A stretch of 45,805 nucleotides of DNA from Enterobacteria phage vB_EcoS_Rogue1, in sequence record NC_019718.1; one strand, given 5' to 3'. Below are positions 1,104 through 45,739 of the stretch, piece by piece. Below the pieces are notes generated by a model. That model did not search any database. It was not told the origin of the DNA and saw only the letters and a list, made by a program, of their open reading frames with translations. Numbering within the stretch: position 1 is the stretch's first letter; every line of letters starts with the position of its first letter. A program made the translations under genes and the position numbers.

Positions 1104-1189
1104 TGTTTGATTTCAGCGAAGATAAATTGACTGATGAGCAGATTGAGAAGCTAAAGCGGAAGAAAAAATATCTCCTGACCGGTAAATAG
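1103..1189 (+). CDS. small ORF (28 aa) whose N-terminus MFDFSEDKLTDEQ resembles that of the 530-aa protein at 41856-43448
   Basis: ATG overlaps the upstream stop (TAATG); the stop TAG is the first triplet of the palindromic box. Confidence 0.25.
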   Translation: MFDFSEDKLTDEQIEKLKRKKKYLLTGK

Positions 1190-1229
1190 CACTAATTGCT
1201 AAACAATAAATTGGGTAGTCAGCTATGAT
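1187..1229 (+). promoter_or_regulatory. palindromic box TAGCA-CTAAT-TGCTA (1187-1201), 22-bp spacer, -10-like TATGAT (1224-1229)
   Basis: Member of the repeated box family; downstream leader CAACCAAACGAGAGG precedes the ATG at 1261. Confidence 0.5.
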
Positions 1230-1260
1230 TGCCTTATCAACCAAACGAGAGGAATTAAAT

Positions 1261-1500
1261 ATGATTACCATCAACCTGTCAGAAGAGCACGCTGCCGAAA
1301 TTAAAACCGTGTTAATGCACTGCCTCAATCGCAAGTTGTTTAGTGCGTCAGAGTCGCTTACAGAGGTCGTGACCCAGATTCGCAATCAAGAGTTCGACGA
1401 TAAAGACGATCTTCCGTGGGATACAGATACCGCATGGAGCCGATACGAGCAGGTTTGCACGGCGCTATCAGGTTGCCAACTGGCTAGCCAATACAAGTGA
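1261..1500 (+). CDS. hypothetical protein (79 aa)
   Basis: Start refined to the ATG preceded by GAGAGG RBS; the ORF track start at 1225 lies inside the -10 element. Confidence 0.5.
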   Translation: MITINLSEEHAAEIKTVLMHCLNRKLFSASESLTEVVTQIRNQEFDDKDDLPWDTDTAWSRYEQVCTALSGCQLASQYK

Positions 1501-1726
1501 CAATCTACGAACACAAATTCAGCAGCAGGGGTATCGATATGCTCCTGCATTACGTAGACGAACAATACGCCATGTTGATGCAGAAGACGCATGGCGGCAC
1601 TATAACGAGGGTTGAAATATGTACTACTATATGATTCCTGTTGAAGATTTGATTCTTGATTACAATCACGGCTACATTGCTGTATGCGACGCTGATACAA
1701 TGACTGCATATGTTGACTTTGAATTT

Positions 1727-1754
1727 GAGGATTGAGATATGAGGATTGAGATAT
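1727..1754 (+). repeat. exact 14-bp tandem duplication GAGGATTGAGATAT x2, duplicating the RBS and start region
   Basis: 1727-1740 and 1741-1754 are identical; the second copy supplies the ATG at 1753. Confidence 0.7.
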
Positions 1755-2052
1755 GAGTAAGTACGAAAAAGAGATTATTGGCCTGGACGGCACCAAGACT
1801 ACGGTTGATGTATATCGCGTCATCGCAGCATTTGGCGTAACGGACCCGGCACTACAGCATGCCATCAAAAAGGTACTGTGCAGCGGCATTCGAACACGAC
1901 ATAAGGATTACCCTACCGACATCAATGAGGCCATTGTATCGCTTCAGAAGGCCATAGAATTCCATGATCAAAGGGGCGCACATGTCCAGGAACTTATAGA
2001 CAAGTATCGCAACGGACCTAAACATTATCTTGATAGCTGGAGCAACAAATAG
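1753..2052 (+). CDS. hypothetical protein (99 aa)
   Basis: ORF with GAGG RBS supplied by the tandem duplication; stop overlaps the next palindromic box. Confidence 0.55.
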   Translation: MSKYEKEIIGLDGTKTTVDVYRVIAAFGVTDPALQHAIKKVLCSGIRTRHKDYPTDINEAIVSLQKAIEFHDQRGAHVQELIDKYRNGPKHYLDSWSNK

Positions 2053-2092
2053 CACAAATTGCTAAACATCCATCGCAAGGATGCGTTACCAT
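2050..2092 (+). promoter_or_regulatory. palindromic box TAGCA-CAAAT-TGCTA (2050-2064) plus -10-like TACCAT
   Basis: Box begins on the stop codon of the upstream gene; leader TTTATCGAAATGAGACGAGG precedes the ATG at 2125. Confidence 0.45.
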
Positions 2093-2124
2093 TACTTTAT
2101 CGAAATGAGACGAGGAAAGATTAA

Positions 2125-2253
2125 ATGTGTGGATATGATGAGTTGCCAAGTGAATGGTGTAAAAAGATGATGGATAAGGCTAAAGATGGGGATGAAGTAA
2201 TGGCGTACTTTGAGTTGATGAACATGTGGCATGAGCGCGAGGAGAAGAAATGA
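2125..2253 (+). CDS. small Cys-containing hypothetical protein (42 aa)
   Basis: ATG after GAGG RBS; stop overlaps the next start (ATGA). Confidence 0.35.
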   Translation: MCGYDELPSEWCKKMMDKAKDGDEVMAYFELMNMWHEREEKK

Positions 2254-2543
2254 AGATTAACGTATTCACTGGCAACTTATTGGCAGCCAACGATTCTGAA
2301 GGTGGTGACGGCAAGCGAGCAATTCACATGGGGAGTAAGAAACAAAAAATGAGGCGCATATCTATTGATGAAGCAATTAAAATTGGTAGCTTCGTTTGCT
2401 TGTGGGTATGTGATGGTGAGCTTCAAGCGGAACAGGTTAGGAATGGTTACGTATATACTGGATATGATGAATATGACGATGAGAGAGAATTGTTTCAGCC
2501 TGCATTTTATCTCGACGCTGAATTTTACATCGCTGGAGAATAA
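2250..2543 (+). CDS. hypothetical protein (97 aa)
   Basis: ORF coupled to the upstream gene by ATGA overlap. Confidence 0.5.
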   Translation: MKINVFTGNLLAANDSEGGDGKRAIHMGSKKQKMRRISIDEAIKIGSFVCLWVCDGELQAEQVRNGYVYTGYDEYDDERELFQPAFYLDAEFYIAGE

Positions 2544-2546
2544 CCC

Positions 2547-2924
2547 ATGATATGGATTCACACGTACTACACTGGCAAGTTCAATAGCGTAATGCACAAA
2601 CGAATGTATGACAGCTATGAATCAGCAAAGGCACAGCAGGCAGTCCTAGGTGGCGATATTTCAATCTTACAAGAAGGCTTAATCATGTTCGGACTTACTC
2701 AACCACAATTTAATGCAGTTCGCGCCCAAGCTAAGAAACTTAACGAGGCAGTGGATAAGCTGACAAGCAAGCAGAAGCAGGATAATGACATCATGAAGGC
2801 GATTATCTGTGAGTTTCATAGCCCAGTCAGTACAATCATCGAGAAGATGAAGTTTGTTTGGGTTGCAGGCTATCTTGCTGGTCGCGTAGGTAAGCGTGAA
2901 GATGGGGAGCAGATTTATGACTAA
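2547..2924 (+). CDS. hypothetical protein (125 aa)
   Basis: ORF in the same early cluster; start uncertain. Confidence 0.45.
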   Translation: MIWIHTYYTGKFNSVMHKRMYDSYESAKAQQAVLGGDISILQEGLIMFGLTQPQFNAVRAQAKKLNEAVDKLTSKQKQDNDIMKAIICEFHSPVSTIIEKMKFVWVAGYLAGRVGKREDGEQIYD

Positions 2925-3111
2925 ATCACTAGGGAAAGTCAGATGTATTGTGTCTTACAATGATAAGAAGTTCAAAACTGGTAAATCTTACAGCATTTTG
3001 TCATCACCCGCATATGGTTGGGTTAAATGTGAGTCAGAAGATGGGTGTATAGAGATGGTTAAAGATGGCAATGACATTGAGTTTGGTTACTTTGAGGTAT
3101 TTTATGACTGA
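2917..3111 (+). CDS. hypothetical protein (64 aa)
   Basis: Start refined to an ATG overlapping the upstream stop (ATGA). Confidence 0.4.
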   Translation: MTKSLGKVRCIVSYNDKKFKTGKSYSILSSPAYGWVKCESEDGCIEMVKDGNDIEFGYFEVFYD

Positions 3112-3308
3112 GCTATCAATCTGGTTCCTGGCTGGCATGTTGACGTGGATTTATTTCGTCGTCATGGCTTGACGAAAATGTTAAAAGTGGTTAGTATTAA
3201 CCACGTAGACGGCAATGACCGTAACGCGCATCGCGGAGATGCAAGCCGATAGCCGGGCTGGATAAAGATACGAGGCAAATACCACTACACCAGCGCAAAT
3301 GGTGTATG

Positions 3309-3348
3309 CCGGACCTTTCCGAGGATTGGCCGGACCTTCCGAGGATTG
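3309..3348. repeat. tandem direct repeat CCGGACCTT(T)CCGAGGATTG x2
   Basis: Copies at 3309-3328 (20 nt) and 3330-3348 (19 nt) differ by one T; about 40 bp upstream of the tRNA. Confidence 0.7.
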
Positions 3349-3386
3349 TGAAACCTCCCCGCATTCGGTAAGCGGGACTCATTCTA

Positions 3387-3462
3387 GTTCTGCTGGCGTA
3401 ACAGGATAACGCAGAGACCTCCTAAGTCTCAGTTGCTGGTTCGAGTCCAGTGCGGAACACCA
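3387..3462 (+). tRNA. tRNA-Arg, anticodon CCU (reads AGG)
   Basis: Hand-folded cloverleaf: acceptor GTTCTGC/GCGGAAC (one G-U pair), D-stem GCGT/ACGC, anticodon stem GAGAC/GTCTC, loop CTCCTAA with U33 and A37, 4-nt variable loop, T-stem GCTGG/CCAGT, T-loop TTCGAGT, discriminator A, encoded CCA; 76 nt. Confidence 0.85.
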
Positions 3463-3478
3463 AACATGGAGCATCCTA

Positions 3479-3664
3479 GTGAATAACTACGAAGTCCGTT
3501 TAACTTCCCGCCTAATGGGTCGGCAATGCAAATCTTGCCAGCAATCCTACGAAGGTAGGTTCATTGCTAAAAGCCCTGAAGAAGCAGTTGCAGCCGCAAA
3601 GGCAGCATTTAAGATTGACCTGACAGTCCACAAAGTCAGCGTTGATAAAGTATCCCTCGTTTGA
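3479..3664 (+). CDS. hypothetical small protein (61 aa, GTG start)
   Basis: ORF with GGAG RBS, followed by a rho-independent terminator; weak. Confidence 0.3.
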   Translation: MNNYEVRLTSRLMGRQCKSCQQSYEGRFIAKSPEEAVAAAKAAFKIDLTVHKVSVDKVSLV

Positions 3665-3692
3665 GATTGGTCATCTCGCAATGCAGTACTTT

Positions 3693-3716
3693 GCCCTCCT
3701 TGTGAGGGCTTTTTTT
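3693..3716 (+). terminator. rho-independent terminator
   Basis: GCCCTC-CTTGT-GAGGGC hairpin followed by TTTTTTT. Confidence 0.7.
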
Positions 3717-3763
3717 CGTCCATAGTCATGGTACAATGACTTTTAAAACAGGAGGAATATCAA

Positions 3764-11009: not shown

Positions 11010-11012
11010 AAT

Positions 11013-11100: not shown

Positions 11101-12048
11101 ATGACTATCAAACTTGACGCTTTCGAGCAAGAAAAGATTACTAACCACCTGCGAGCTATGGGCGTTGATAAGGCTGATGCGGCTGGTATCTGGACCGTGA
11201 AGCAGCTAACTGCAAGCCTGAATAAAGCTTACGAAACTGAGTACGACCAGAACTCCGTAGTAAACCTGTTCCCTGTAAGCAATGAAATTCCCGGCTATGC
11301 TAAGTACTTCGAGTATCCGGTATTTGATGGCGTTGGTATTGCTCAGATCGTAGCTGACTACACTGATGACCTGCCACTTGTTGACGCTTTAGCAACTGAA
11401 CGTCAGGGTAAAGTTTTCCGTTTTGGTAATGCTTTCTTGATTTCCATCGATGAAATTAAAGTTGGTCAAGCTACCGGTCAGTCACTATCTACTCGCAAGC
11501 AATCTCTTGCTTTCGAAGCTCACGATAAGCTGCTTGATAAACTGGTATGGTCAGGCTCTACTGCTCACGGTATCCCGAGTGTGTTCGACTATCCAAATAT
11601 CAACAACGTTGTTAGCGGTGGCTCATGGTCTCAACCAACTACAGCAGTAAGCGATATTACAAGTCTGCTGGATATTATCGAGACTTCAACCAATGGTCAG
11701 CACCGTGCAACTCACCTGCTTCTGCCTACTACCGCTCGTCGTATCATGCAGAACCTGGTTCCTGGTACCTCTGTTAGCTACGGTGAGTTCTTCCGCCAGA
11801 ACAACAGCGGAGTAACTGTTGAGTTCGTTCAGTACCTGAATGATTACAATGGCACTGGCACCTCTGCTGCTATTGCTTATGAGAAAGACCCTAACAACAT
11901 GGCCATCGAGATTCCTGAAGCGACTAACGCACTGCCAGCTCAGCCGAAGGATTTGCACTTCCGTGTTCCGGTAACTTCTAAAGCAACTGGTTTGATCGTG
12001 TTTAGGCCTTTAACGATGGCTGTAATGAAAGGCATTACTTTCGCGTAA
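11101..12048 (+). CDS. putative major capsid protein
   Basis: 315 aa (start refined to the ATG after AAAGGA RBS), flanked by strong terminators, positioned after the scaffold and before the neck genes. Confidence 0.65.
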   Translation: MTIKLDAFEQEKITNHLRAMGVDKADAAGIWTVKQLTASLNKAYETEYDQNSVVNLFPVSNEIPGYAKYFEYPVFDGVGIAQIVADYTDDLPLVDALATERQGKVFRFGNAFLISIDEIKVGQATGQSLSTRKQSLAFEAHDKLLDKLVWSGSTAHGIPSVFDYPNINNVVSGGSWSQPTTAVSDITSLLDIIETSTNGQHRATHLLLPTTARRIMQNLVPGTSVSYGEFFRQNNSGVTVEFVQYLNDYNGTGTSAAIAYEKDPNNMAIEIPEATNALPAQPKDLHFRVPVTSKATGLIVFRPLTMAVMKGITFA

Positions 12049-12063
12049 TAGCACTTTTTGATA
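12049..12063 (+). promoter_or_regulatory. palindromic box TAGCA-CTTTT-TGATA directly abutting the capsid stop, followed by a terminator hairpin
   Basis: Member of the repeated box family. Confidence 0.45.
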
Positions 12064-12069
12064 AGACAT

Positions 12070-12096
12070 AGCACCCTTCGGGGTGCTATTTTTGTT
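12070..12096 (+). terminator. rho-independent terminator
   Basis: AGCACCC-TTCG-GGGTGCT hairpin followed by ATTTTTGTTT. Confidence 0.75.
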
Positions 12097-12111
12097 TAAG
12101 GAGGAGCAAAC

Positions 12112-12597
12112 ATGAACTACAACGACTATTTCGCTTATGATGACGGAAAGATATTCTGGACTTCAAAAACAACAGATATGGCGCACAACATAAGACTTGG
12201 GGATGAGGCCGGGACTTGCAATGGTCTTGGTTACAAAAGGGTTATGTTGTTTGGTAAGCACACCATGGTTCATCACATAGTTTGGATCATGCATGGCAAT
12301 GAGATACCAAAGGGCATGGAGGTTGACCACTTGGATCATGATAGGCGCAACAACAGGATAGAGAATCTAAGGCTGGTAGACAGGGGTGTAAACATGAGGA
12401 ATAAGTCTACGTACAGGAACAGCAAGACCGGTCACCATGGAGTTACTATCAGGCCGGACAGTGGAAAGTATCGAGCTAAGATAACGATTAATAAGAAGGT
12501 TATCAACTTGGGTACTTTTGATTCAATAGATGACGCAATATCAGCCAGAAAGGATGCGGAAGTAAAGTATGGATTCCATGCCAACCACGGGGTATAA
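12112..12597 (+). CDS. HNH homing endonuclease with C-terminal AP2-like DNA-binding domain
   Basis: HNH core VDHLDHDRRNNRIENLRLV..N; C-terminal GVTIRPDSGKYRAKI...LGTFDSIDDAISARKDAEVKYGF resembles an AP2 domain; AGGAGG RBS. Confidence 0.85.
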   Translation: MNYNDYFAYDDGKIFWTSKTTDMAHNIRLGDEAGTCNGLGYKRVMLFGKHTMVHHIVWIMHGNEIPKGMEVDHLDHDRRNNRIENLRLVDRGVNMRNKSTYRNSKTGHHGVTIRPDSGKYRAKITINKKVINLGTFDSIDDAISARKDAEVKYGFHANHGV

Positions 12598-34429: not shown

Positions 34430-36373
34430 ATGGAAAACCGATTGAAAACAATACAAAAACAGATTGAAGAATTGGGCGAAGATAAGATTAAAGAGATTCA
34501 AACTAAATTCACCTCTTCTAACGGTATGGTTCCGTATAGCTATCAGTGTGTTATGTACAATGAGATTGCAAAGCGCATTAGTCGCTATGAGCATCCATTT
34601 ATCGCAATGGCTTCAGTTTCTGCTGGTAAGACTCTGGTTTTTGGTATGGTTGCTAAGCGTTGCTCTGAGCTTGGCTTGCCTATGCTTGTTCTTGCTCGTC
34701 AGGCAGAGCTGGTTAGCCAGAATGCTTCTGAGATTTCTGATTACGGGGTTCCTAACTCCATTTATTGCTCTGGGCTTGGAATAAAATCATCTTATTTCCC
34801 TGTGGTGGTTGGCTCTGAGGGCACAGTAGTTGGCGGGCTTAAGAAGTCACTTGGCGATTTCTGTCCTGCGGTAGTTGCTATTGATGAGTGTCACCATATT
34901 GATGACCAGGACATAGCGGAGGCAATTGATAACAATGAGACTGCGCAACAGGCATCAGATAAGGGGCGTAGCCAGTATACGGTCATCATCCTGACTTTAA
35001 TGGAGCGCTGCCGTGCTAAGTATGGCAAGAATCTTCGTATCTTTGGACTGACTGGTTCTCCTTTCCGTGGAACTACGCCAATAGTTGTTGAAAACAAAAA
35101 GGAGTTGGGATTTTGGCGTGAGACGGTCACAAATATCGATACAAACTACCTGGTCGAGTTCGGTTCCGTGGTTCCGACAAACTTTGGTGCTACTGATGGC
35201 GTTGGTTACGACCTCTCAGAGTTTGATGCATCATCTGAAGATGGTGTTCAGGATTACACTAAAGCCCAGCTTGAAGCCATGGATAAAAAGATTCAGGCAT
35301 CTGGAACAATGACAGCGGAGATAATGAAGAAAGTATGGCTTGCCGCGAAAAACAGGAATGGAGTTCTGGTAACATGCGCAGGTGAGCGCCATTGCCACGA
35401 AGCCGCAAGTTACCTTCCTGAAGGTGAAAAGTTCTGCATTATAACTGGAAAGACTGGCGAGAAGCAGCGCAAGGAGTTGCTTGATAAGTGCTTTAGCGGG
35501 GAGATTAAATATTGCTTTCAGGTTCAGGCGCTAACCACTGGCGTAAATGTGCCTACATGGGATACAAGCGTTATTCTGCGTAAGATTGGTAGCCTTACGC
35601 TCCTGGTTCAGCTACTTGGTCGAGGAATGCGTAAGCTTAAGAAGCTCCATGAAGATAAAGGAATGGTCAAGAATGACCATTTGGTACTGGACTTCGCAGG
35701 AACGATGGACTCTATGGCATCATTGTACTTCAATCCAATTCTTGAGCAGGCTCAATATCAGCTACGAAAGAGTAATGGCAAGGAGACTAAGCAGTGTCCA
35801 GTATGCGGAACAGAGAACAGCTTCTTTGCTCGACGTTGCATGCATATTGATGAGAATAATAATCGCTGCGAATATTTCTGGGTTAGTCGCACATGTGAAG
35901 ACCAGAAAGACCCACGAACCGGAAAGGTTATCGTTAAAGGCTGCGGAGTTCAGAATGACGTTGCAGCTAAGATTTGTAGGGGTTGCGATTGCACTTTGCT
36001 TGATCCAAATCTCAACTTAAGCGGCAAACATTACCGCAAGAACGACTGGTTTGATGTTGTTGACTTTAAGGTTGGGCTAACAAAGAACCAATCAGGAATC
36101 ATCTACAACTACATCCTTGATGATGGCATGGGTGGGACATTCAAAGCTCATGAGGTTTTCTTTGTAGAGTCTGACCATCGAGTATGTAAAACGCTCTGGT
36201 TGAACAATGGAATTAAAGGTCACGTAGTCGACATGAACGCTAAGCGATATATGGCTGCATATCGCAATGCTCGCAAGATTATGGAGTATGCGCAGTACAT
36301 CCATGCCCCTAAGAGGGTAACTCACCGCAAGACCGCTAAAGGTGGCGATAATATTGCTAATAAGGAGTTCTAA
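34430..36373 (+). CDS. superfamily-2 DNA helicase with C-terminal zinc ribbon
   Basis: Walker A SAGKTLV, DECHH box, QLLGRGMR arginine-finger motif, C-terminal CPVCG...C..C; start refined to the ATG at 34430. Confidence 0.75.
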   Translation: MENRLKTIQKQIEELGEDKIKEIQTKFTSSNGMVPYSYQCVMYNEIAKRISRYEHPFIAMASVSAGKTLVFGMVAKRCSELGLPMLVLARQAELVSQNASEISDYGVPNSIYCSGLGIKSSYFPVVVGSEGTVVGGLKKSLGDFCPAVVAIDECHHIDDQDIAEAIDNNETAQQASDKGRSQYTVIILTLMERCRAKYGKNLRIFGLTGSPFRGTTPIVVENKKELGFWRETVTNIDTNYLVEFGSVVPTNFGATDGVGYDLSEFDASSEDGVQDYTKAQLEAMDKKIQASGTMTAEIMKKVWLAAKNRNGVLVTCAGERHCHEAASYLPEGEKFCIITGKTGEKQRKELLDKCFSGEIKYCFQVQALTTGVNVPTWDTSVILRKIGSLTLLVQLLGRGMRKLKKLHEDKGMVKNDHLVLDFAGTMDSMASLYFNPILEQAQYQLRKSNGKETKQCPVCGTENSFFARRCMHIDENNNRCEYFWVSRTCEDQKDPRTGKVIVKGCGVQNDVAAKICRGCDCTLLDPNLNLSGKHYRKNDWFDVVDFKVGLTKNQSGIIYNYILDDGMGGTFKAHEVFFVESDHRVCKTLWLNNGIKGHVVDMNAKRYMAAYRNARKIMEYAQYIHAPKRVTHRKTAKGGDNIANKEF

Positions 36374-36762
36374 TGGTTAAGGTTTTTCACGACAAAACAA
36401 GCACGGACAAGGCTAAAGAGGTTGTTCACCAAATAAATTCAATAGCTTGGGTTCGCCACAACCATCCAGAGATATTTGCTTTTCACGTGAAGAATGAAGG
36501 TCTCAAGTCTATCGGCACAGCAATGAAGGACAAGCAGGAGGGAGTAATTAAGGGTGTATCAGATATTCTACTGATTGGACCAAATGGCTTTGCCGCAATA
36601 GAGCTTAAGCGAGCAATAAAATCAGATAGCAAGGTTTCAAAGGAGCAAAAGGAGTTCCTGGAAAAGGTATCAGAAACAGGAGGTTACGCGGCAATCTGTT
36701 ATGGGTTTGAAATGTTTAAGTTGGCAATTACAGATTATCTATCAAATAGCACGAATTGCTAA
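36373..36762 (+). CDS. VRR-NUC domain nuclease
   Basis: 129 aa with D-x(n)-IELK core (ISDILLIGPNGFAAIELKRA) typical of VRR-NUC/PD-(D/E)XK minimal nucleases. Confidence 0.6.
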   Translation: MVKVFHDKTSTDKAKEVVHQINSIAWVRHNHPEIFAFHVKNEGLKSIGTAMKDKQEGVIKGVSDILLIGPNGFAAIELKRAIKSDSKVSKEQKEFLEKVSETGGYAAICYGFEMFKLAITDYLSNSTNC

Positions 36763-36789
36763 AGAGATTTCGCAAGGATGCGATATAGT
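36747..36789 (+). promoter_or_regulatory. palindromic box TAGCA-CGAAT-TGCTA, 22-bp spacer, -10 TATAGT (36784-36789), leader CATCGAAACGAAGAGAGAGA
   Basis: Box overlaps the last codons of the VRR-NUC gene. Confidence 0.55.
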
Positions 36790-36820
36790 TACTTCATCGA
36801 AACGAAGAGAGAGAAACAAA

Positions 36821-37015
36821 ATGAATACTATCTACACTGAAAAGCTGTACAAGTCACGCAAAACTGGTTATGAATATGAATTAGCAATCACCCCTGAGGG
36901 TTATATTCTTGATGATGGAGACGGTTACTCATTCGAAGTTAGCCCAACATACAAAGATGATTTAGAGACTGTTAAAAACGCATTCGGCGAAAAATTTGAT
37001 GAGGTGTCAGAATAA
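36821..37015 (+). CDS. hypothetical protein (64 aa)
   Basis: Start refined to the ATG downstream of the promoter and leader. Confidence 0.5.
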   Translation: MNTIYTEKLYKSRKTGYEYELAITPEGYILDDGDGYSFEVSPTYKDDLETVKNAFGEKFDEVSE

Positions 37016-37430: not shown

Positions 37431-37431
37431 A

Positions 37432-37474
37432 TAGCACTTTTTGTTAAAACTAAAATACAAGGATGGATTATATT
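37432..37474 (+). promoter_or_regulatory. palindromic box TAGCA-CTTTT-TGTTA, 22-bp spacer, -10 TATATT
   Basis: Box family member; leader with GAGAGGG RBS precedes the ATG at 37505. Confidence 0.5.
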
Positions 37475-37504
37475 AATTACATCAGCAAATGAGAGGGTTA
37501 AGAG

Positions 37505-37630
37505 ATGAAAATTATAGACAAAGAGATGTTCGAGATTGCGCAGTCTTTCGCAAATGACGCAGTTAAGACTGGATCTGAATATTGCTGGATGTGCGCTCGA
37601 GAATATTTAAAAATGGCTTACGGCCTATGA
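37505..37630 (+). CDS. small hypothetical protein (41 aa, Cys-x-x-Cys)
   Basis: ATG after RBS; stop overlaps the next start (ATGA). Confidence 0.4.
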   Translation: MKIIDKEMFEIAQSFANDAVKTGSEYCWMCAREYLKMAYGL

Positions 37631-37866
37631 TAGTTGAAACAGGACGCGCCGCTGTATGGGCGCATTGTGGAGAGGCGGGATTGCAGGATGACATCAAGAT
37701 GATAGGTAAATACTTTGATATTGATGACATATCTGTAGTTTTCAATGGGAAGTTTAGTTATATGAACCAGCGGCCACGCAAGTATGTAAGAGTTCCAGCA
37801 ACGCCTAGCCTCGCAATGTATCGTGAGGAAGGTAAGAAGATATTTAAGAAAGGTGCGAAGAAATGA
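37627..37866 (+). CDS. hypothetical protein (79 aa)
   Basis: Start refined to the ATGA overlap. Confidence 0.45.
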   Translation: MIVETGRAAVWAHCGEAGLQDDIKMIGKYFDIDDISVVFNGKFSYMNQRPRKYVRVPATPSLAMYREEGKKIFKKGAKK

Positions 37867-38120
37867 ATTTACCTGGTCTAGATTTTGATGAGAGTAAGTA
37901 TCAGGTTGTGTTTTTTGGTGAGAAGCCTTATCGGAAGATTCCTTTCTCTGAGTGGATTCCTCCGGACTACCTCGATGTACTGGTGCAAATTGAGATTGGT
38001 AAAGCTGAGTTGATGTACTATTCGCCAGGTTGCAATATGATGATGCCTAGTGAGTATTCACCAGCAATTTCTTCTCTAGAAACTGAGTTTCTTGATTACT
38101 GGCTAAAAGAAGTAAAATAG
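37863..38120 (+). CDS. hypothetical protein (85 aa)
   Basis: Coupled ORF (ATGA overlap); stop overlaps the next palindromic box. Confidence 0.5.
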   Translation: MNLPGLDFDESKYQVVFFGEKPYRKIPFSEWIPPDYLDVLVQIEIGKAELMYYSPGCNMMMPSEYSPAISSLETEFLDYWLKEVK

Positions 38121-38160
38121 CACTTTTTGTTAAAACACATCGCCATGGATGGCGTATAGT
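38118..38160 (+). promoter_or_regulatory. palindromic box TAGCA-CTTTT-TGTTA, 22-bp spacer, -10 TATAGT (38155-38160), leader CATCGAAACGAGAGA
   Basis: Box family member; a 22-codon hydrophobic mini-ORF (38188-38256) lies in the leader before the phosphoesterase gene. Confidence 0.55.
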
Positions 38161-38271
38161 GTGTTCATCGAAACGAGAGACGATTCAGATGAAAACATTA
38201 CTACCGTTGATGGCTATGCCATTAACCTTTATAATCATGTACTTCATAATCTGCTAACAGGAAATTAAATA

Positions 38272-39405
38272 ATGGCTATAGCTAAAATCACCAACGAAGA
38301 GTTAAAGCAAGAACTGGCTAACGGTATGACTAACAAGGCAATCGCAGAGAAGTACGGTATGAATATTCGTAACGTAGAGCTGCGTCGCAGCAAGTTGGCT
38401 AAGGCTGGGGATGGTCACGGTCGCGATGTGAGTAACCTAATTCCTCAGGGCTACATGGTTAAAGGTGTATCTAGCCTTGTTGATAATGATGGCAATGTGA
38501 AGTTGCAATGGGTTAAGTCCTCTATTGATGCAGAGAAGCTTGAGGAGATGATGAATCAAGCGCGAGAGGCATTCTCTAGCGAGCTACCAAAAGAAAAAGC
38601 AGTTAAATCTGAAGGTCTGAATTTTGATGAAGATACTTTAGCTATGTATCCAGTATTTGACCTTCACATTGGCGCAATGGCCCACAAGCATGAGTGCGGA
38701 GAAAACTACGACACAGCAACGGCAGAGAAAGTAATGAACGATTATTTTGACTACGCCGTACAGAAATCTCCAAATTCAAAGAATGCTGTACTAGTGCTAG
38801 GAGGTGATCTGCTTCATTATGATTCTTTGGAAGCCAAAACTCCAGCCAGTGGTCACATCCTGGACAGTGACAGTCGCTACGCCAAGATTGTTTATGTTTG
38901 CATTCGAGCGGTTCGCCGCGCAATTCGAAACATGCTTAGCAAACATGAAAACGTAGAGGTTAAAGTTATATCTGGTAATCATGATGAAAGTGGTATGGTT
39001 TGGTTGCGGGCTGCGCTTGCTGCATTTTATGAGGAAGAGCCACGCGTTAGTATTGATGTTAGTCCCGCGGCAATGATGGTAACTAAGTTTGGTTCTACAA
39101 TGCTTGGTTTCACTCACGGGCATCAAATGCGTAAAGCTGATACTCGCCTTTCGGTTATGGCTACTGACTGGCGACGTGACTTTGGTTTAAGTGATTATGT
39201 ATACACCCACTCAGGCCACTGGCATTCACAGAAGATTACAGAGACAAATCTTGGTATTGATGAGGTTCATGGTCAGCTTGGTTCACCAGATGCATATAGT
39301 GCGAATGGTGGATGGCGCTCACAAAGGCAGGCCGCGGTAATCATCTATCATAAAGAGTTTGGTGAGGTTGGTCGCTTTATCTGCCGTCCAGAAATGTTCA
39401 AATAA
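38272..39405 (+). CDS. calcineurin-like metallophosphoesterase with N-terminal HTH-like region
   Basis: Motifs FDLHIG (D-x-H), GGDLLHYD (GD-x-x-D), GNHDE and GHWH in canonical order; N-terminal LKQELANGMTNKAIAEKYGMNIRNVELRR resembles an HTH. Confidence 0.7.
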   Translation: MAIAKITNEELKQELANGMTNKAIAEKYGMNIRNVELRRSKLAKAGDGHGRDVSNLIPQGYMVKGVSSLVDNDGNVKLQWVKSSIDAEKLEEMMNQAREAFSSELPKEKAVKSEGLNFDEDTLAMYPVFDLHIGAMAHKHECGENYDTATAEKVMNDYFDYAVQKSPNSKNAVLVLGGDLLHYDSLEAKTPASGHILDSDSRYAKIVYVCIRAVRRAIRNMLSKHENVEVKVISGNHDESGMVWLRAALAAFYEEEPRVSIDVSPAAMMVTKFGSTMLGFTHGHQMRKADTRLSVMATDWRRDFGLSDYVYTHSGHWHSQKITETNLGIDEVHGQLGSPDAYSANGGWRSQRQAAVIIYHKEFGEVGRFICRPEMFK

Positions 39406-39420
39406 TATCACTTTTTGTTA
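39406..39420 (+). promoter_or_regulatory. degenerate palindromic box TATCA-CTTTT-TGTTA followed by a GC hairpin
   Basis: Abuts the phosphoesterase stop; downstream -10 unclear. Confidence 0.3.
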
Positions 39421-39470
39421 AAGCCCTTCGAGGCTTTTGAGATGCGTCAGCTACAGATATAGGAATCAAA

Positions 39471-39668
39471 ATGATTACAGAGATGATTTTAGTTGCAAGC
39501 CTTTCATCTCCATTGGTATCTCAACAGTATTGTGAACTTGGAAAAGAGATTTACCATGAAGGAGTGGAATTAAGAACGGTTGTTGATTGGCTTAATCACA
39601 GCACGATGAATATTGATGATAAAAAGATTGTCCTTGAGTGCTATATAGTGGAGTCAAATAAAGTCTAA
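39471..39668 (+). CDS. hypothetical protein (65 aa)
   Basis: ATG after AGGAA RBS. Confidence 0.45.
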   Translation: MITEMILVASLSSPLVSQQYCELGKEIYHEGVELRTVVDWLNHSTMNIDDKKIVLECYIVESNKV

Positions 39669-39711
39669 ATAGCACGAATTGCTAAAACGAAAATCAAAAG
39701 ATGGGGTATAG
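39669..39711 (+). promoter_or_regulatory. palindromic box TAGCA-CGAAT-TGCTA, 22-bp spacer, -10 TATAGT embedded in inverted repeat GATGGGG/CCCCATC
   Basis: Box centre is about 42 bp upstream of the predicted transcription start. Confidence 0.55.
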
Positions 39712-39744
39712 TTACCCCATCTAAACAAACGAGAGGATACAAAG

Positions 39745-39930
39745 ATGGCTAAATTCACACAATCAGATGCACAAATCGAAGTTAAAGATGTTGGTTTTGG
39801 TAAGACCTTTAAGATTGCGCAGGCATACGGCTCTAGCGAAGAAGATGTAAAAGTTGACACTATCAATCTTACTGCTAAGAATGCTCGTGAAATTGCCTAC
39901 GCAATCCTAGATGCACTTGGAGAGCGCTAA
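39745..39930 (+). CDS. hypothetical acidic protein (61 aa)
   Basis: ATG after GAGAGGA RBS. Confidence 0.5.
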   Translation: MAKFTQSDAQIEVKDVGFGKTFKIAQAYGSSEEDVKVDTINLTAKNAREIAYAILDALGER

Positions 39931-41502: not shown

Positions 41503-41517
41503 TGGCTCCTTTATTTT
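41494..41517. terminator. bidirectional rho-independent terminator at convergent junction
   Basis: GGAGCC-TAAT-GGCTCC hairpin flanked by AAAAAAA and TTTATTTT. Confidence 0.7.
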
Positions 41518-41851: not shown

Positions 41852-41855
41852 TTAA

Positions 41856-43448
41856 TTACCCCAGCAGCCGTGGATTGATATATACCTTGTCACCAATCAG
41901 GCAGGTATAGTTTTTATCATCAAGCATCGGGAGTAAGTGGTCTTTAATTTTAGCCATAACACCAGCCTGTGACTCGAAAGGTCGAACCTTACGCGCAGCT
42001 TCATAAAGTGAACGCAAACCCACAACTCCTTTACTGTTCTTGCCTTGCTTGATAAGGATATCAATTAACTTGTTCATCTCAGCGTTATCGCCAGCATGAC
42101 CAGCTGCGTTAGCTGAGGATAAGTAAGTCTTACTAAGTTCTCCAAACATCAACAAAGCCTCTTGCATGGTTTCCAGTTCAATCTCCCTGGACTTCTGCGG
42201 ACTACCGCCATTGGGGTTAAACCAGTTACGGATAGTGTGAAGAACGGCAGCAAGGCGAATTACCTGTTTATCCATTTTACCTAACGCGCCGCGCAGCATT
42301 GTGTGTGAATACTTACCGCCATCTGCAAGGTGTGGCTCCATTTCCTGTCGAGCACGGTTAAGGTGCTTCATTGCTGAGTTACTAATAGTCAACTTCACAT
42401 CTTGCTCACTCATAATTTCATGAACAAGACGGAAGTAATCAGCCTTCAACGATCCGTCAATCGGCTCATATGTTGACTCGCCATTATCATCGACGAAAAC
42501 ACGCTCACCAAGGAATGACTTTTCACGCACAAGCAAGAAACGTTCGGATACACCAATACCGCGAGCACCAGCATTCATGATTGCGACTATTGTTTCATCC
42601 TGCGCAATTACAGAAATACACCCCAGAGCAATAAAGCTCATGTTGTTCTCTGCGTTCGCACGCGCGATAGATACGTTACCAGCATCCCAGGCCTTAAGTA
42701 CCAGTTCGCTGTTTGTTTTCTTTGTTCCATCACCATAGGTCATGCCCAGCAGTGAGTTGACGCTCGTCGCCTCATCCGAGATGACAGCGAAGCTACCCTG
42801 ACGATGGTTAATGCGTGCCAGACCTTCAGGAGTAGTATCAGATACAGGGAATACGATGTCGCAAAGTTTCTCGAGCTTATCTTCCAGCTCCTCCTTCTCC
42901 TCAAACAAACCAGCCATCTCAGAAGGCGACTTCTCCTGCTTCATTTCTTTAGCCAGAGCCGACAGCTTGGCCATGATCTTTTTACGGTCACGCTTACGCA
43001 GATCGTTTAGTCGCTCAGTCTCTGCAATCATTGGAGCCAGAGACAGCGAGTTAATGGCAGATTTACCAGTTGATGGAGGCTGGCTGGTCACTACATACAG
43101 TGATGTTGGTTGTTGAGTTCCGTGATACTCAACCGTAAAGCGACCCAACATAGCTGCCGAGATGCAACCAAGGAAGTGCATATAAGCAGATGATTCAGGA
43201 AACTGAACAGAACGAGCAATGTTGCTTGATAGTTTGCCAACTACATCATAGTCGTTACCAAGCGAGATAACAGGATACTTGTCGCCAGTAGAATCAATCT
43301 CAACCGGAGCTTTCCAGAATGATGCGCTCTGGCGATAACCGTTCGCATTAATAGCAACACGTAAAGGAGGTAATCCATCCTGAGCGGCAATAGTCATTAC
43401 TTGTTCAACAGTCAATTTGTCATCATTAAAATCAAACATTATTATCAT
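41856..43448 (-). CDS. hypothetical protein (530 aa) with P-loop-like motif PPSTGKS
   Basis: Long ORF; Walker A-like SQPPSTGKSAINS about 120 aa from the N-terminus; function not recognised. Confidence 0.55.
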   Translation of the reverse strand: MIIMFDFNDDKLTVEQVMTIAAQDGLPPLRVAINANGYRQSASFWKAPVEIDSTGDKYPVISLGNDYDVVGKLSSNIARSVQFPESSAYMHFLGCISAAMLGRFTVEYHGTQQPTSLYVVTSQPPSTGKSAINSLSLAPMIAETERLNDLRKRDRKKIMAKLSALAKEMKQEKSPSEMAGLFEEKEELEDKLEKLCDIVFPVSDTTPEGLARINHRQGSFAVISDEATSVNSLLGMTYGDGTKKTNSELVLKAWDAGNVSIARANAENNMSFIALGCISVIAQDETIVAIMNAGARGIGVSERFLLVREKSFLGERVFVDDNGESTYEPIDGSLKADYFRLVHEIMSEQDVKLTISNSAMKHLNRARQEMEPHLADGGKYSHTMLRGALGKMDKQVIRLAAVLHTIRNWFNPNGGSPQKSREIELETMQEALLMFGELSKTYLSSANAAGHAGDNAEMNKLIDILIKQGKNSKGVVGLRSLYEAARKVRPFESQAGVMAKIKDHLLPMLDDKNYTCLIGDKVYINPRLLG

Positions 43449-43460
43449 CTCTCTCTAAAT

Positions 43461-43474
43461 GCCCCCGAAGGGGC
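43461..43474 (-). other. GC hairpin GCCCC-CGAA-GGGGC between two minus-strand genes
   Basis: Read directly; weak T-run, possible attenuator. Confidence 0.35.
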
Positions 43475-43482
43475 TTGACTAT

Positions 43483-43662
43483 TTACTTGATACGAACTTC
43501 AATCATCTGACCTTTATGAGGAAGATACAGCTTTGCGCGACCTCTAATCATTACGGTGATGATATTCTCCTTAAGGTCAACGTGAAGTACTTTGCGGAAC
43601 AGCGGCCCCATTTTTACCATCATGCCAGGTTTGATGTTTTCGATAGTAGTCATGATATCCAT
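43483..43662 (-). CDS. hypothetical protein (59 aa)
   Basis: Found by manual translation downstream of a box-type promoter; below the track cutoff. Confidence 0.4.
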   Translation of the reverse strand: MDIMTTIENIKPGMMVKMGPLFRKVLHVDLKENIITVMIRGRAKLYLPHKGQMIEVRIK

Positions 43663-43700
43663 TTTTTAGCCCTTTTAATGTATTTCGTTTCGATGAAGAG

Positions 43701-43744
43701 AATATATCAATTTTTGTTGTTAAGTTCTTTAGCAAAAAGTGCTA
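43701..43744 (-). promoter_or_regulatory. palindromic box (43730-43744) plus -10 TATATT (complement of 43701-43706) and leader CATCGAAACGAAA
   Basis: Box family member in minus orientation. Confidence 0.5.
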
Positions 43745-43861
43745 TTAAAGACCAACCAGACATTTGCCAACTACAACAGCGATTGCGCCCATGAAGCCAA
43801 AGAAACCAAACTTAATTACTTGTTCCATTACCGCATCAACTGCTTTAGAGATGTTTTTCAT
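43745..43861 (-). CDS. small membrane peptide (38 aa; TMD FGFFGFMGAIAVVVG)
   Basis: Start refined to the internal ATG with AAGGTGA RBS; the longer track ORF starts inside the promoter box. Confidence 0.4.
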   Translation of the reverse strand: MKNISKAVDAVMEQVIKFGFFGFMGAIAVVVGKCLVGL

Positions 43862-43898
43862 TTTGTTCACCTTAGTTTTTGTCTTCTTGATGGAAACA

Positions 43899-43942
43899 AA
43901 TATACCCGCCGAAGCGGGTACTGTCATTAGCAAAAAGTGCTA
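43899..43942 (-). promoter_or_regulatory. palindromic box (43928-43942), terminator hairpin (43903-43920) in the spacer, -10 TATATT
   Basis: Composite terminator/promoter unit; hairpin TACCCGC-TTCG-GCGGGTA followed by a T-rich run on the minus strand. Confidence 0.5.
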
Positions 43943-44149
43943 TTTTTTTAAGTGCCCTGGCGCATAGCATTTTCCATCCTTCTTATGCAAAACCCACCCA
44001 GCATATTTAAGTTGCCTTGCACAATCAGAAAAGTTCTCGCCCGCAGCGTCCGTATAGTGTGGCATAAAATAAGAACCATCATCATTTGACTCAGTTGAGC
44101 ACTTCTTACAGTCGCAATAAACAGCGATGGAATAACCTGAAACAATCAT
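43940..44149 (-). CDS. hypothetical Cys-rich protein (69 aa)
   Basis: ORF with CDCKKC...C...C pattern; coupled to the upstream ORF. Confidence 0.45.
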   Translation of the reverse strand: MIVSGYSIAVYCDCKKCSTESNDDGSYFMPHYTDAAGENFSDCARQLKYAGWVLHKKDGKCYAPGHLKK

Positions 44150-44499
44150 TTGTAAGCCGCCTCAAACTTATACATCCCATAACCCACATCAAAGCCAACT
44201 TCTTCATCACGCGTCAACTGCCAGCCCTCGCCGTCTTCATCATAAATATACCCAGCGTTACGACCAAGTGATGCAGTCATTGATACCTGGTAACGCTTAC
44301 CCTTACTGAAACTCTTCTTGAGTGGTGACTTGTGGTTCACGAAAGTGCAAAGCAAAGTCTTTGTCTTGACGTAACGACCCCGGCCAGTGAGATTTTGCCA
44401 TTTACCATGAATCTTGATTTGCTCAATACCATCTTTAACGCGAGCTTTAAACAGATTGTTATCTGAGCTGATCCAGTTTTTAGTGATAGTGGTAGCCAT
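44146..44499 (-). CDS. hypothetical protein (117 aa)
   Basis: ORF with RBS on the minus strand. Confidence 0.5.
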   Translation of the reverse strand: MATTITKNWISSDNNLFKARVKDGIEQIKIHGKWQNLTGRGRYVKTKTLLCTFVNHKSPLKKSFSKGKRYQVSMTASLGRNAGYIYDEDGEGWQLTRDEEVGFDVGYGMYKFEAAYK

Positions 44500-44524
44500 T
44501 ACTATTTTCCTTTTTGGTTTGTTA

Positions 44525-44827
44525 TTAGTTAGCGTTATGACGTTCGATATAGTCGCGGATTGTTTCGCCTACGCTTTTAGCGGCACCAAAAGTGCCCTTT
44601 GCGTGGCGTGAATCGCGGTACGTCTGGAAGAATTTACGAGCGATGTTTGCGAACATTGAACCAGTCACGCGAGCATCACCGAAATTTGTTTCGATAGCGT
44701 TGCTAATGCCATCCTTGAACTCATTTTCAGTCATGAACATCTCTGCCATGCCAGCAGTCTCGAAAAGGTTAGCTAATTCATTCATGTTGTTATGGTCTTC
44801 GGCTGTAAACAGGTTCATGTTAATCAT
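44525..44827 (-). CDS. hypothetical protein (100 aa)
   Basis: ORF following a box-type promoter and conserved leader. Confidence 0.5.
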   Translation of the reverse strand: MINMNLFTAEDHNNMNELANLFETAGMAEMFMTENEFKDGISNAIETNFGDARVTGSMFANIARKFFQTYRDSRHAKGTFGAAKSVGETIRDYIERHNAN

Positions 44828-44861
44828 CTTCGTGATTCCTTAGTTTCGTTTCGATGAGATG

Positions 44862-44903
44862 AATATACAATAAAAGCCCCGAAGGGCTTTAGCAATTCGT
44901 GCT
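44862..44903 (-). promoter_or_regulatory. palindromic box (44889-44903, TAGCA-ATTCG-TGCTA), terminator hairpin (44875-44888) in the spacer, -10 TATATT, leader CATCGAAACGAAAC
   Basis: Composite terminator/promoter unit in minus orientation. Confidence 0.5.
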
Positions 44904-45054
44904 ATTTCTTTGCTGCTTTTGCAATTGCCTTCTGGACGATGTTGAAGCTCTCAATCAAATCTTCTTTGAAGTAGTCACCAACAGGCCAACCCTTACCGCT
45001 GTACTTTGCTATAGTTTCTAGATCGTAATAGTTCAAATCAGATGGTTTAAGCAT

Positions 45055-45294
45055 TTACCTCACCTCATCAAAAGTTGCGACACCAGGGATAAACATTCCG
45101 ACCTTCCAACCTGCGATAGCAATCCATCCAGAATCGTGCTTGTGCGGTCGCTCGGCGCCATTAATCACCCACTCGTTCGGGATTGTCTTGCCGTTAATGA
45201 TTAGCAGCTCAGCTTCGTATACAGAGCCTTTTACAAATGGCGTCAAAACCTTTTTGTCTGTACTGTTAATAACGTTTGTGCAGCGAATTTTCAT
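45055..45294 (-). CDS. hypothetical protein (79 aa)
   Basis: ORF with GAGG RBS. Confidence 0.5.
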   Translation of the reverse strand: MKIRCTNVINSTDKKVLTPFVKGSVYEAELLIINGKTIPNEWVINGAERPHKHDSGWIAIAGWKVGMFIPGVATFDEVR

Positions 45295-45306
45295 ATCTCA
45301 ATCCTC

Positions 45307-45483
45307 AAATAAATGGTAAACATTCGACGCAGCCAAGTCCATCGCAGCACAGAAATCCATCTTCTGACTGGAATTGCTTAGCCAAATCAATGTCCAGCTT
45401 TCCGCGCAGCACAAGGTTGGTGTAAACTTCGTTAAGTCCAATCAGTGCGCATTCGTGGCGCAAATCGTCTTTATCAATCTTCA
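45307..45483 (-). CDS. hypothetical Cys-rich protein (58 aa, CCDGLGCVEC)
   Basis: Found by manual translation; GAGGTAGAG RBS. Confidence 0.4.
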
Positions 45484-45668
45484 TAACGCTCTACCTCGAA
45501 GTTGTATACCATTACGTTTCTATCATGCTTGTTCTTTATCACCATTGACTCAAGCTCTTCGTATACAGCCACTACATTGTAAACACCACCAGGCTCAAGG
45601 CCGTAGAATTCGTATTCTTCATCGTCAAAACCATCCGTTTTACTTAGTGCTGTTATTTTTACCTTCAT
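45474..45668 (-). CDS. hypothetical acidic protein (64 aa)
   Basis: First ORF downstream of the promoter at 45696-45739. Confidence 0.5.
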   Translation of the reverse strand: MKVKITALSKTDGFDDEEYEFYGLEPGGVYNVVAVYEELESMVIKNKHDRNVMVYNFEVERYED

Positions 45669-45695
45669 ATCTATCTCCTCGTTGTTGATGAGTTT

Positions 45696-45739
45696 ACTAT
45701 AGCCTTGCCATCCCCATTTGTCTTTAGCAAAAAGTGCTA
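45696..45739 (-). promoter_or_regulatory. palindromic box (45725-45739) plus -10 TATAGT (complement of 45696-45701)
   Basis: Box family member in minus orientation with 23-bp spacer. Confidence 0.5.

Follow-up and report, generated by a model that had tools for sequence, protein, structure and literature searches.

The antibiotic and oxidative-stress activators MarA, SoxS, Rob and RamA of enterobacteria recognise motifs that are nearly indistinguishable from one another (PMC10268841). At their class II promoters, published rules place the binding site (marbox) in forward orientation, overlapping the –35 region and clustering near –41, with no recognisable –35 element; the structural model is micF, where the box is centred at –41.5 (PMC9638938). 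In T1-like phages, the 2024 re-annotation of phage TLS described a 21-nt direct repeat, aaATAGCACnnnTTGnTAAAA, which is also present in T1, Rtp and Rogue1; stoperators, enhancer sites and UP elements were put forward as its role, none was settled on, and the TLS authors did not find an RNA polymerase or sigma gene (PMC11447400). Here we analysed the 45,805-nt sequence of Enterobacteria phage vB_EcoS_Rogue1 (NC_019718.1), the whole of which we call the window, and followed up a box of the form TAGCA-N5-TGYTA that recurs throughout it. We found that this box is the TLS repeat, that with its flanks it has the sequence of a marbox, and that it stands at a fixed distance from a sigma70 –10 element. 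The best explanation is that these modules are probably class II promoters activated by host MarA, SoxS or Rob.

The first 20 kb of the window match Escherichia phage JK06 at 96% identity across 93% of their length, phiKP26, phiJLA23 and related phages match them as well, and the window is about one genome long. These sequence matches place it with the JK06/Rogue1-like Rogunavirus phages (Drexlerviridae), which are virulent siphophages of the T1 type. When we searched the window for TAGCANNNNNTGYTA, we found 23 strand-matches representing 13 sites, compared to 0.27 expected (100 shuffles, maximum 3), so the repeat that the original prediction had pointed out is real against a shuffled-sequence control. 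The exact sites start at 1187, 2050, 19333, 26498, 34351, 36747, 37432, 38118, 39670, 43730, 43928, 44890 and 45725; in the list given originally, two of these were off by one (39669 and 44889) and four further entries are near matches. Three of the four are added by a one-mismatch search, 12049 (TGATA), 28871 (AGCTA) and 39406 (TATCA...), and the fourth, 26872, has the left half only, its right half being degenerate (TAATCA). Beside the 13 exact sites there are thus 4–5 near copies, and about 17 phage promoters are concerned. Every copy is directional, TAGCAC-N3-TTGYTAA pointing toward the downstream gene on either strand, and the five minus-strand copies all precede minus-strand genes. As had been noted from the sequence, and as the ends of the open reading frames (ORFs) bear out, the boxes adjoin or contain the stop codon of the upstream gene; at six sites (2050, 28871, 36747, 38118, 43942 and 44904, the last two being the 5' ends of the minus-strand boxes at 43928 and 44890) the TAG or TAA within the box is itself the stop codon.

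The box and the TLS repeat are one element: they agree in consensus, in lying between genes and in pointing along the direction of transcription. The TLS repeat lies about 76 nt before start codons, and the distance from box start to ATG is about 74–76 nt at 1187, 36747, 39670 and other sites; the centre types TTT, GAA and AAA/TAA are common to both. We counted 21 copies in T1 and 19 in Rtp. The repeat is therefore already known, a point missing from the original prediction, and the promoter kind itself is well known; what is new is the marbox identification, together with the setting, how many copies there are, their consensus strength and the hairpins nested in them. The TLS paper contains neither the marbox identity, nor the fixed extended –10, nor the hairpins enclosing the –10 (PMC11447400), and our literature search returned no paper tying marboxes to T1-like phage promoters.

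Across the family we collected 367 distinct instances from 124 loci (the complete T1, Rtp and JK06 genomes and IMG/VR contigs), numbered with the T of TAGCAC as position 1. The conserved block, part of which was imposed by the harvesting pattern, reads A(–1) A0 T1 A2 G3 C4 A5 C6 [G/T]7 W8 W9 T10 T11 G12 Y13 T14 A15 A16 A17. Positions that the pattern left free are strongly biased, with A0 in 94%, Y13 in 93% (C 61%, T 32%) and A17 in 91% of instances, and C6 is conserved in 96%. The three unconstrained bases at the centre occur in few types only (TTT, GAA and TAA/AAA); this is not a marbox requirement and may mean that the modules arose by duplication, or that a bendable A/T centre is favoured. 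The box had been described as a palindrome. Functionally it is not one: its conservation is asymmetric (A0, C6, Y13 and the AAA tail), which argues against a palindromic operator and matches the asymmetric marbox.

The marbox consensus, which we take to be AYnGCACnnWnnRYYAAAYn, with its layout checked only against the E. coli mar marbox ATGCCACGTTTTGCTAAATC, is fitted by the family consensus at 12 of 13 specified positions, including the asymmetric ones. We then scored the window with a weight matrix whose only source was 87 Salmonella MarA/SoxS/Rob/RamA sites from chromatin immunoprecipitation sequencing (ChIP-seq; Table 1, PMC10268841). The matrix consensus, GCACTAATTGCTAAA, is letter for letter the boxes at 1187 and 19333, and the box at 2050 equals the SoxS site of the Salmonella plasmid pSLT, GCACAAATTGCTAAA. 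The 13 top scores in the window are the 13 exact boxes, at 15.3–17.9 bits, above 84–100% of the ChIP sites. Matches of at least 14 bits number 18 in the window compared to 0.5 in shuffles; at least 15 bits is reached 19 times in T1, 13 in Rtp, 14 in JK06 and 15 in the window, compared to about 0.3 in shuffles and none in phage lambda. On the same matrix the E. coli marboxes of micF and mar score 14.9 and 12.9 bits, and the phage boxes 15–18. At the level of sequence, it is near certain that the box with its flanks (ATAGCACnWWTTGYTAAA) is the mar/sox/rob marbox.

Past the box, an unconstrained stretch leads to an extended –10 (T35 45%, G36 71%, n, T38, A39 75%, T40, A41, R42, T43 78%), in which the most conserved hexamer positions, A39 and T43, are the two most informative for sigma70. 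A pyrimidine-purine start follows 7 nt past the hexamer (C49 59%, A50 71%). The best –10-like hexamer begins at position 38 in 241 of the 367 instances, at 37 in 16 and at 39 in 38. Most window copies likewise carry a –10-like hexamer from box position 38, which is 22 bp past the 15-bp box, and the hexamer is followed by CATCGAAACGAGAG and then a ribosome-binding site; the leader CATCGAAACGA is exact in five window copies and has at most two mismatches in about ten. There is no –35, because the hexamer 17 bp upstream of the –10 (positions 15–20) reads AAAACN. This fixed spacing, the leader and the missing –35 had all been read correctly from the window; the extended –10 had not been remarked on. 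TTGCTA was rejected as a –35, since it would need a 22-bp spacer and has no –10-like sequence 17 bp past it. The two canonical promoters that had been set apart from the box promoters are also present as described, TTGATA-17-CATAGT at 27661 and TTGATA-17-TGcTATAGT-cattcCATCGAAACG at 493. Because the promoter at 493 has the same –10 and leader as the box promoters together with a true –35 and no box, the box stands in for the –35.

The geometry agrees with micF. In E. coli K-12, the micF promoter reads GCACTGAATGTCAAA, 20 nt, TAGAAT, and the 15-mer is centred at –41 relative to the annotated micF 5' end. In the phage modules the corresponding 15-mer is followed by 20 nt and the hexamer (the same 241 of 367 instances), its centre lies at –40 from the predicted start, and all copies are in the micF orientation, with GCAC distal and AAA proximal to the –10. 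Since spacing and orientation coincide in phage and micF, the class II position is right to the base pair, and the earlier suggestion that these are promoter modules with the box at the class II activator position holds, with centres at –40 to –42 from the predicted start. The inaA promoter was considered as a second host example and left unused: its 15-mer stands 20 nt before TATAGT but scores 0.6 bits.

Which protein would read the box? An E. coli MarA homologue was not detected in the window, JK06, T1, Rtp or three distant relatives, partial genomes included, by tblastn or phmmer (best E 1.3), and a phage-encoded MarA-like reader was accordingly rejected. A host MarA/SoxS/Rob-type activator is therefore the most economical candidate. 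Even Vibrio phage Vc1 and other distant relatives, whose helix-turn-helix (HTH) proteins are 48–54% identical to that of the window, carry the box in unaltered form, and this fits a very conserved reader. In our reading of the ChIP table, the sites most like the phage boxes all list SoxS, and several also list MarA, RamA or Rob. A dedicated trans-acting regulator from phage or host, rather than plain sigma70 recognition, had been the original proposal, and a trans-acting regulator is still the best reading.

In each of these compact intergenic modules a forward 20-bp marbox, ATAGCACnWWTTGYTAAAnn, occupies about –50 to –31 in place of the –35 hexamer. The –10 hexamer (TATAGT or TATATT, often with an extended –10 TG) lies 18 bp past the 20-mer, with the predicted start at the A of CATC, 7 nt past the hexamer, and a short conserved leader, AUCGAAACGAGAGG, bearing the ribosome-binding site. 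From sequence and geometry we infer that a host protein of the MarA/SoxS/Rob family (in Klebsiella, Salmonella and Enterobacter, RamA) would bind the marbox as a monomer with its two helix-turn-helix motifs. It would then bring in RNA polymerase by way of sigma70 region 4 and the alpha C-terminal domain, as in the solved micF complex. The 18-bp spacer, which is without sequence constraint, would be used for a hairpin acting on transcripts from the upstream gene. This hairpin would be either a spacer/discriminator stem looping out the –10 or a terminator in which the U tract also provides the –10 and discriminator.

Hairpins are present in about 85% of modules across the family (clustered set). 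Four terminator hairpins in spacers had been reported for the window, and we found them at 12049, 39406, 43942 and 44904; hairpins around the –10 had not been described. When we folded 236 distinct modules, the stem enclosed the –10 in 141, lay wholly in the spacer in 70 and did neither in 25 (21 stemless, 4 other), with a mean minimum free energy (MFE) of –11.0 compared to –5.0 for shuffles. Pair statistics in a fixed register over all instances gave a signal at i+j = 75–76, but relatedness inflates such statistics, so we replaced them with a clustered analysis. Among 116 clusters (less than 72% identical), 60 have an enclosing stem, 39 a spacer stem, 15 none and 2 another arrangement, and the mean MFE is –9.7 compared to –4.8 for shuffles (p 2e-15). 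The 5' arms of the 60 enclosing stems comprise 59 distinct sequences, and the 3' arm starts at position 44, directly past the hexamer, in most of the enclosing stems listed. In T1 and Rtp the inverted repeats flanking the –10 differ in sequence (GGGGTA/TACCCC, AGGCCA/TGGCCT, AGGGCA/TGCCCT, GCGGTC/GGCCGC and others), and the corresponding pair in the window is GATGGGGTA/TACCCCATC. As judged from these arms, the enclosing stem covaries.

The spacer stems are terminators with a tetraloop, their U tract being supplied by the –10 plus discriminator, and the T1 record annotates them as terminators. In the window, a G+C-rich stem with a U tract is present in the four spacer hairpins and at 33858–33831. 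The enclosing stems, for example at 28871 and 39670, are without a U tract and are followed by CATCGA or CATCTA; strong stems in the window are those at 1187, 28871, 38118 and 39670. Where a co-directional ORF of 60 codons or more ends at the box, the stems are more stable than elsewhere (–11.8 vs –8.3, p 3e-4; p 0.03 for cluster representatives). These data suggest that the stems act on the 3' ends of upstream transcripts and are built from the only unconstrained DNA of the module. A role at the DNA level, such as extrusion exposing the –10, is possible, and the role of the hairpins is only partly explained.

Several points weigh against activation by MarA, SoxS or Rob as we have drawn it. 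Positions 18–19 of the 20-mer fit the marbox consensus poorly (Y18 in only 26%). Our literature search returned no binding, activation, start-site or RNA-seq data for T1-like phages or Drexlerviridae. Cells that are not under stress contain little MarA or SoxS, and most of their Rob is sequestered (PMC10268841), which leaves in doubt which activator would be available at infection. Activator-independent firing is conceivable for the many copies that have an extended –10, the sequence could be read by a phage protein with no relation to AraC/XylS, and the Vibrio host of Vc1 would need its own marbox-binding activator. On the side of the hairpins, termination does not explain the enclosing stems because they lack a U tract, and the advantage in stability of the sense over the antisense strand is modest after clustering (p 0.015).

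Foremost among the other explanations is a phage-encoded protein that would bind the TAGCA/TGCTA half sites as a dimer and activate the promoters in the manner of T4 MotA. The HTH protein encoded at 33864–34337 (minus strand), or else an unrecognised small protein, would be this reader. The HTH protein has weak Cro/YdaS Pfam matches and is kept throughout the family (as a marker it matched 829 phage records, 392 of them named Klebsiella phages), and a box lies 13–14 nt from its start codon in the window, T1, Rtp, Vc1, L125 and L127. Its gene also appears to have a sigma70-like promoter of its own, TTTAAT-17-TATAAT on the minus strand, so the protein could be made first. However, phages with identical boxes encode HTH proteins with very different predicted recognition helices (TRQAVEEW, SNSLLTTW, SFGTVNEW, PYVTVRNAY and others), which weakens this protein as a reader; the conservation of the box is asymmetric, with Y13 breaking the palindrome in one third of copies; the box equals a host marbox consensus that a dedicated phage factor would not need; and the helicase promoter, divergent from the HTH gene, accounts for the neighbouring box as its own marbox. 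We therefore consider a phage reader unlikely. The HTH protein had been named originally as a regulator to be tried and is a poor candidate, as is the Rha-like protein, whose gene follows a degenerate copy.

The HTH gene has features of its own. It always lies between the primase and helicase genes, and its protein has an invariant N-terminal DKRxxNGNNGTxRxxDxxxRK and a conserved GFRAxFCRPDLxFDxNGK block. The –10 of its likely promoter (the reverse complement of 34384–34389) stands face to face with the helicase –10 (34387–34392), T1 has TTGAAT-17-TATAAT in the same place on its minus strand, and the marbox would fall in the 5' untranslated region of the HTH transcript. Because the two promoters overlap face to face, an activator bound there could redirect transcription away from the HTH gene and towards the helicase gene.

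It is quite improbable that the boxes are mainly decoys which titrate MarA, SoxS and Rob (15–20 per genome, multiplied by replication) and so blunt the stress and efflux response, or that they are stoperators bound by a repressor. The boxes do score above nearly all host ChIP sites and there are many copies per genome, and stoperators, enhancers and UP elements have all been raised before (PMC11447400). However, a decoy needs neither a fixed 20-nt distance to the –10 nor a fixed orientation to the gene, and both are strict; no repressor is known in these virulent phages, and the box is not A/T-rich as an UP element would be. Some titration could nevertheless accompany the main function as a by-product.

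Could the box act as RNA instead? A 5-bp hairpin, UAGCA-CNNNU-UGCUA, would form in read-through transcripts and serve an antiterminator or processing factor in the manner of nut or RAT sites. In 93% of instances position 13 is C or U, either of which pairs with G3, about 85% of modules have a hairpin or terminator after the box, and folds are somewhat more stable on the sense strand. We rejected this hairpin as highly improbable: its stem shows no covariation, the box keeps a constant distance to the –10 hexamer but not to the hairpin that follows, whose position varies, no Rfam family matches the module (the Rfam scan matched only a transfer RNA (tRNA)), and marbox identity explains Y13 equally well. 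Another host factor is barely tenable: an Lrp site (yAGhAwATTwTdCTr, a consensus we verified) fits at the outer positions AG-A...T-CT, and the Vibrio and E. coli Lrp HTH domains are 96% identical, but it fits worse than the marbox, mismatching C6 (96%) and positions 7–9 and leaving the A0 flank, the AAA tail and the directionality unexplained, and we found no literature link; and a sigma54-type –24/–12 promoter (TGGCAC-N5-TTGC, with GG and GC elements 10 bp apart), which TAGCAC and TTGC resemble, also fits worse, as the box (TAGCAC-N3-TTGC) has AG in place of the essential GG, is 2 bp short in its spacing and is followed by a sigma70 extended –10 at a fixed distance.

Activation by a host marbox protein thus remains the preferred reading, and the modules of the window are given here with scores in bits from the Salmonella matrix and MFE and z values from hairpin folding. 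The first (1186–1236, plus strand) has the marbox ATAGCACTAATTGCTAAACA at 1186–1205 (17.9 bits, identical to the ChIP consensus), a –10 TATGAT at 1224–1229 enclosed by a hairpin (MFE –11.0, z –3.2), a predicted start at 1236 and an ATG at 1261 (79 aa). The second (2049–2099, plus) has the marbox ATAGCACAAATTGCTAAACA at 2049–2068 (17.8 bits), a weak –10 TACCAT at 2087–2092 and an ATG at 2125; its TAG is the stop of ORF 1753–2052, and its 15-mer is the one identical to the pSLT SoxS site. Past the major capsid gene there is a degenerate module (12048–12111, plus) with the variant TTGATAAG (11.1 bits), a terminator hairpin in the spacer (MFE –15.7), a T-rich TATTTT at 12087–12092 and an ATG at 12112. 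The module at 19332–19382 (plus) repeats the consensus marbox ATAGCACTAATTGCTAAACA (19332–19351, 17.9 bits) before a –10 TACAAT at 19370–19375 and has no hairpin.

Two modules diverge from a 500-bp stretch. On the minus strand (26462–26513), a marbox at 26513–26494 (16.7 bits) is followed by an extended –10 TGcTATAGT (hexamer 26474–26469), a CA start at 26462, the leader CATCGAAACGA and an ATG at 26428. On the plus strand (26871–26921), a half-degenerate module upstream of the Rha-like gene (27017–27646) has ATAGCACGAATAATCAAAAC (10.5 bits) and TATAGT at 26909–26914. The DNA between these divergent box promoters, at 26513–27016, is 500 bp of A+T-rich non-coding sequence with short tandem repeats, attattattattatatatg, and could be an origin or control region. 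The Erf module (28870–28920, plus) lies in the 3' end of the exonuclease gene, with the marbox ATAGCACGAATAGCTAAAAC (15.6 bits) whose TAA is the stop codon, an 11-bp hairpin enclosing TATAGT at 28908–28913 (MFE –16.5, z –4.9), a start at 28920 and the Erf ATG at 28943.

Around the HTH gene, a probable degenerate module precedes the primase gene (33811–33887, minus), with GAAGCACGAAAAGCTAAAGA at the end of the HTH gene (14.4 bits) and a terminator hairpin at 33858–33831 enclosing CATAAT, followed by a U tract and an ATG at 33811; a clearer counterpart is found in the distant relative L127, at 4289. The helicase promoter module (34350–34399, plus) has the marbox ATAGCACTTTTTGTTAAACA at 34350–34369 (15.3 bits), 13 nt from the divergent HTH ATG (34337), an extended –10 TGtTATTAT (hexamer 34387–34392), a start at 34399 and an ATG at 34430, and this arrangement is also seen in T1, Rtp, Vc1, L125 and L127.

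Five plus-strand modules follow. The one at 36746–36796 has the marbox ATAGCACGAATTGCTAAAGA (17.1 bits), whose TAA is the stop of ORF 36373–36762, TATAGT at 36784–36789, a CA start at 36796, the leader CATCGAAACGA and an ATG at 36821. The marbox ATAGCACTTTTTGTTAAAAC (15.3 bits) occurs twice: at 37431–37481, with TATATT at 37469–37474, a start at 37481 and an ATG at 37505; and at 38117–38167, where its TAG is the stop of ORF 37863–38120 and it is followed by a hairpin (MFE –12.1), TATAGT at 38155–38160, a CA start at 38167, the leader CATCGAAACGA, a short ORF and then the exonuclease gene 38272–39405. A degenerate module at 39405–39470 has ATATCACTTTTTGTTAAAGC (10.2 bits), the spacer terminator AGCCCTTCGAGGCTTTT, no good –10 and an ATG at 39471. 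The best example is at 39669–39719, where the marbox ATAGCACGAATTGCTAAAAC (17.1 bits) precedes the perfect hairpin GATGGGGTA-TAGT-TACCCCATC (MFE –17.2, z –8.2), which encloses TATAGT at 39707–39712, with a CA start at 39719 and an ATG at 39745. On the opposite strand (39699–39722, minus) this hairpin is followed by TTTGATTTTC and is terminator-like; this is not general in the family, and here the hairpin could stop antisense transcription.

The remaining four modules are on the minus strand. Before the primase-helicase gene (43694–43745), a marbox at 43745–43726 (17.0 bits) is followed by an extended –10 TGaTATATT (hexamer 43706–43701), a CA start at 43694, the leader CATCGAAACGA and an ATG at 43662. 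Two modules have terminators: at 43892–43943, the marbox 43943–43924, with its TAG as stop codon, precedes the hairpin TACCCGCttcgGCGGGTA (MFE –14.1), whose U tract overlaps TATATT at 43904–43899, and an ATG at 43861; at 44855–44905, the marbox 44905–44886 (17.1 bits), again with TAG as stop codon, precedes the spacer hairpin AAAGCCCttcgGGGCTTT, TATATT at 44867–44862, a CA start at 44855, the leader CATCGAAACGA and an ATG at 44827. The last module (45689–45740) has its marbox at 45740–45721 (17.0 bits), TATAGT at 45701–45696, a CA start at 45689 and an ATG at 45668. The genes behind the boxes include those for the helicase, Erf, exonuclease and primase-helicase and genes of the lysis region, so a host-takeover regulon of small ORFs, as had been suggested, is too narrow a description.

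Elsewhere in the window, a marbox-like 15-mer, GCACAAATGGTTAAA (15.3 bits), lies in the first codons of the large tail-tip (J-like) gene (21764–21785, plus); it lacks both the A0-T1 flank and a correctly spaced –10 and is probably chance or a relic. A tRNA-Arg (anticodon CCU) is found at 3387–3462 (plus), and one arginyl-tRNA has been reported for related phages too. In the Salmonella ChIP table, several MarA/SoxS/Rob/RamA peaks are at prophage-looking gene names (gpP, cIIa<>2594, 2584), and phage-derived DNA beyond the T1 family may use these activators too.

On the distribution of the modules, we lean slightly towards the view that in Drexlerviridae most early and middle promoters have become wired to host MarA, SoxS, Rob or RamA via class II marboxes of consensus strength. 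If so, a very common group of coliphages and Klebsiella phages would read the signal of efflux-mediated multidrug resistance: phage expression, and perhaps burst size, would rise with the antibiotic, bile or oxidative-stress response of the host and in clinical marR, soxR and ramR multidrug-resistant mutants, and replicating phage DNA would soak up these activators. A hairpin looping out the –10 hexamer may add a further layer of control. This wiring would explain a repeat that has puzzled annotators of the T1 family since the T1 genome paper. It predicts synergy of phage with antibiotics or bile and higher permissiveness of mar, sox and ram up-mutants, which is relevant to phage therapy and phage 'steering', and the modules could be used in engineering as strong, compact, activator-responsive promoter-terminator cassettes.

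Compared to known systems, the phage modules share with class II MarA/SoxS/Rob/RamA promoters (among enterobacterial examples, lpxC P2, lpxL P1 and rfaY P1 besides micF) a forward 20-bp marbox over the –35 region, centred near –41, and a sigma70 –10. They differ in lying in a virulent phage genome, with 15–20 copies in about 46 kb, and in being of consensus strength whereas host sites are mostly degenerate; only in the phage is the spacer or –10 embedded in a hairpin and the leader shared, and activator binding is here predicted from sequence. The middle promoters of T4 have a MotA box near –30 that is read by phage-encoded MotA with AsiA (sigma appropriation). As in the phage modules, an activator box replaces the –35 before a sigma70 –10 in a promoter class that extends phage-wide; in contrast to T4, the box here lies near –41 and equals a host activator site, and no phage MarA homologue was found. 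In the PeSL (promoter-early stem-loop) cassettes of T4-type phages, a stem-loop precedes a complete –35/–10 promoter. Our modules resemble these as repeated intergenic cassettes of a stem-loop or terminator and a promoter flanking small ORFs, and probably also in serving as a substrate for modular shuffling; unlike in PeSL, the stem either surrounds the –10 or is inserted between it and the activator box.

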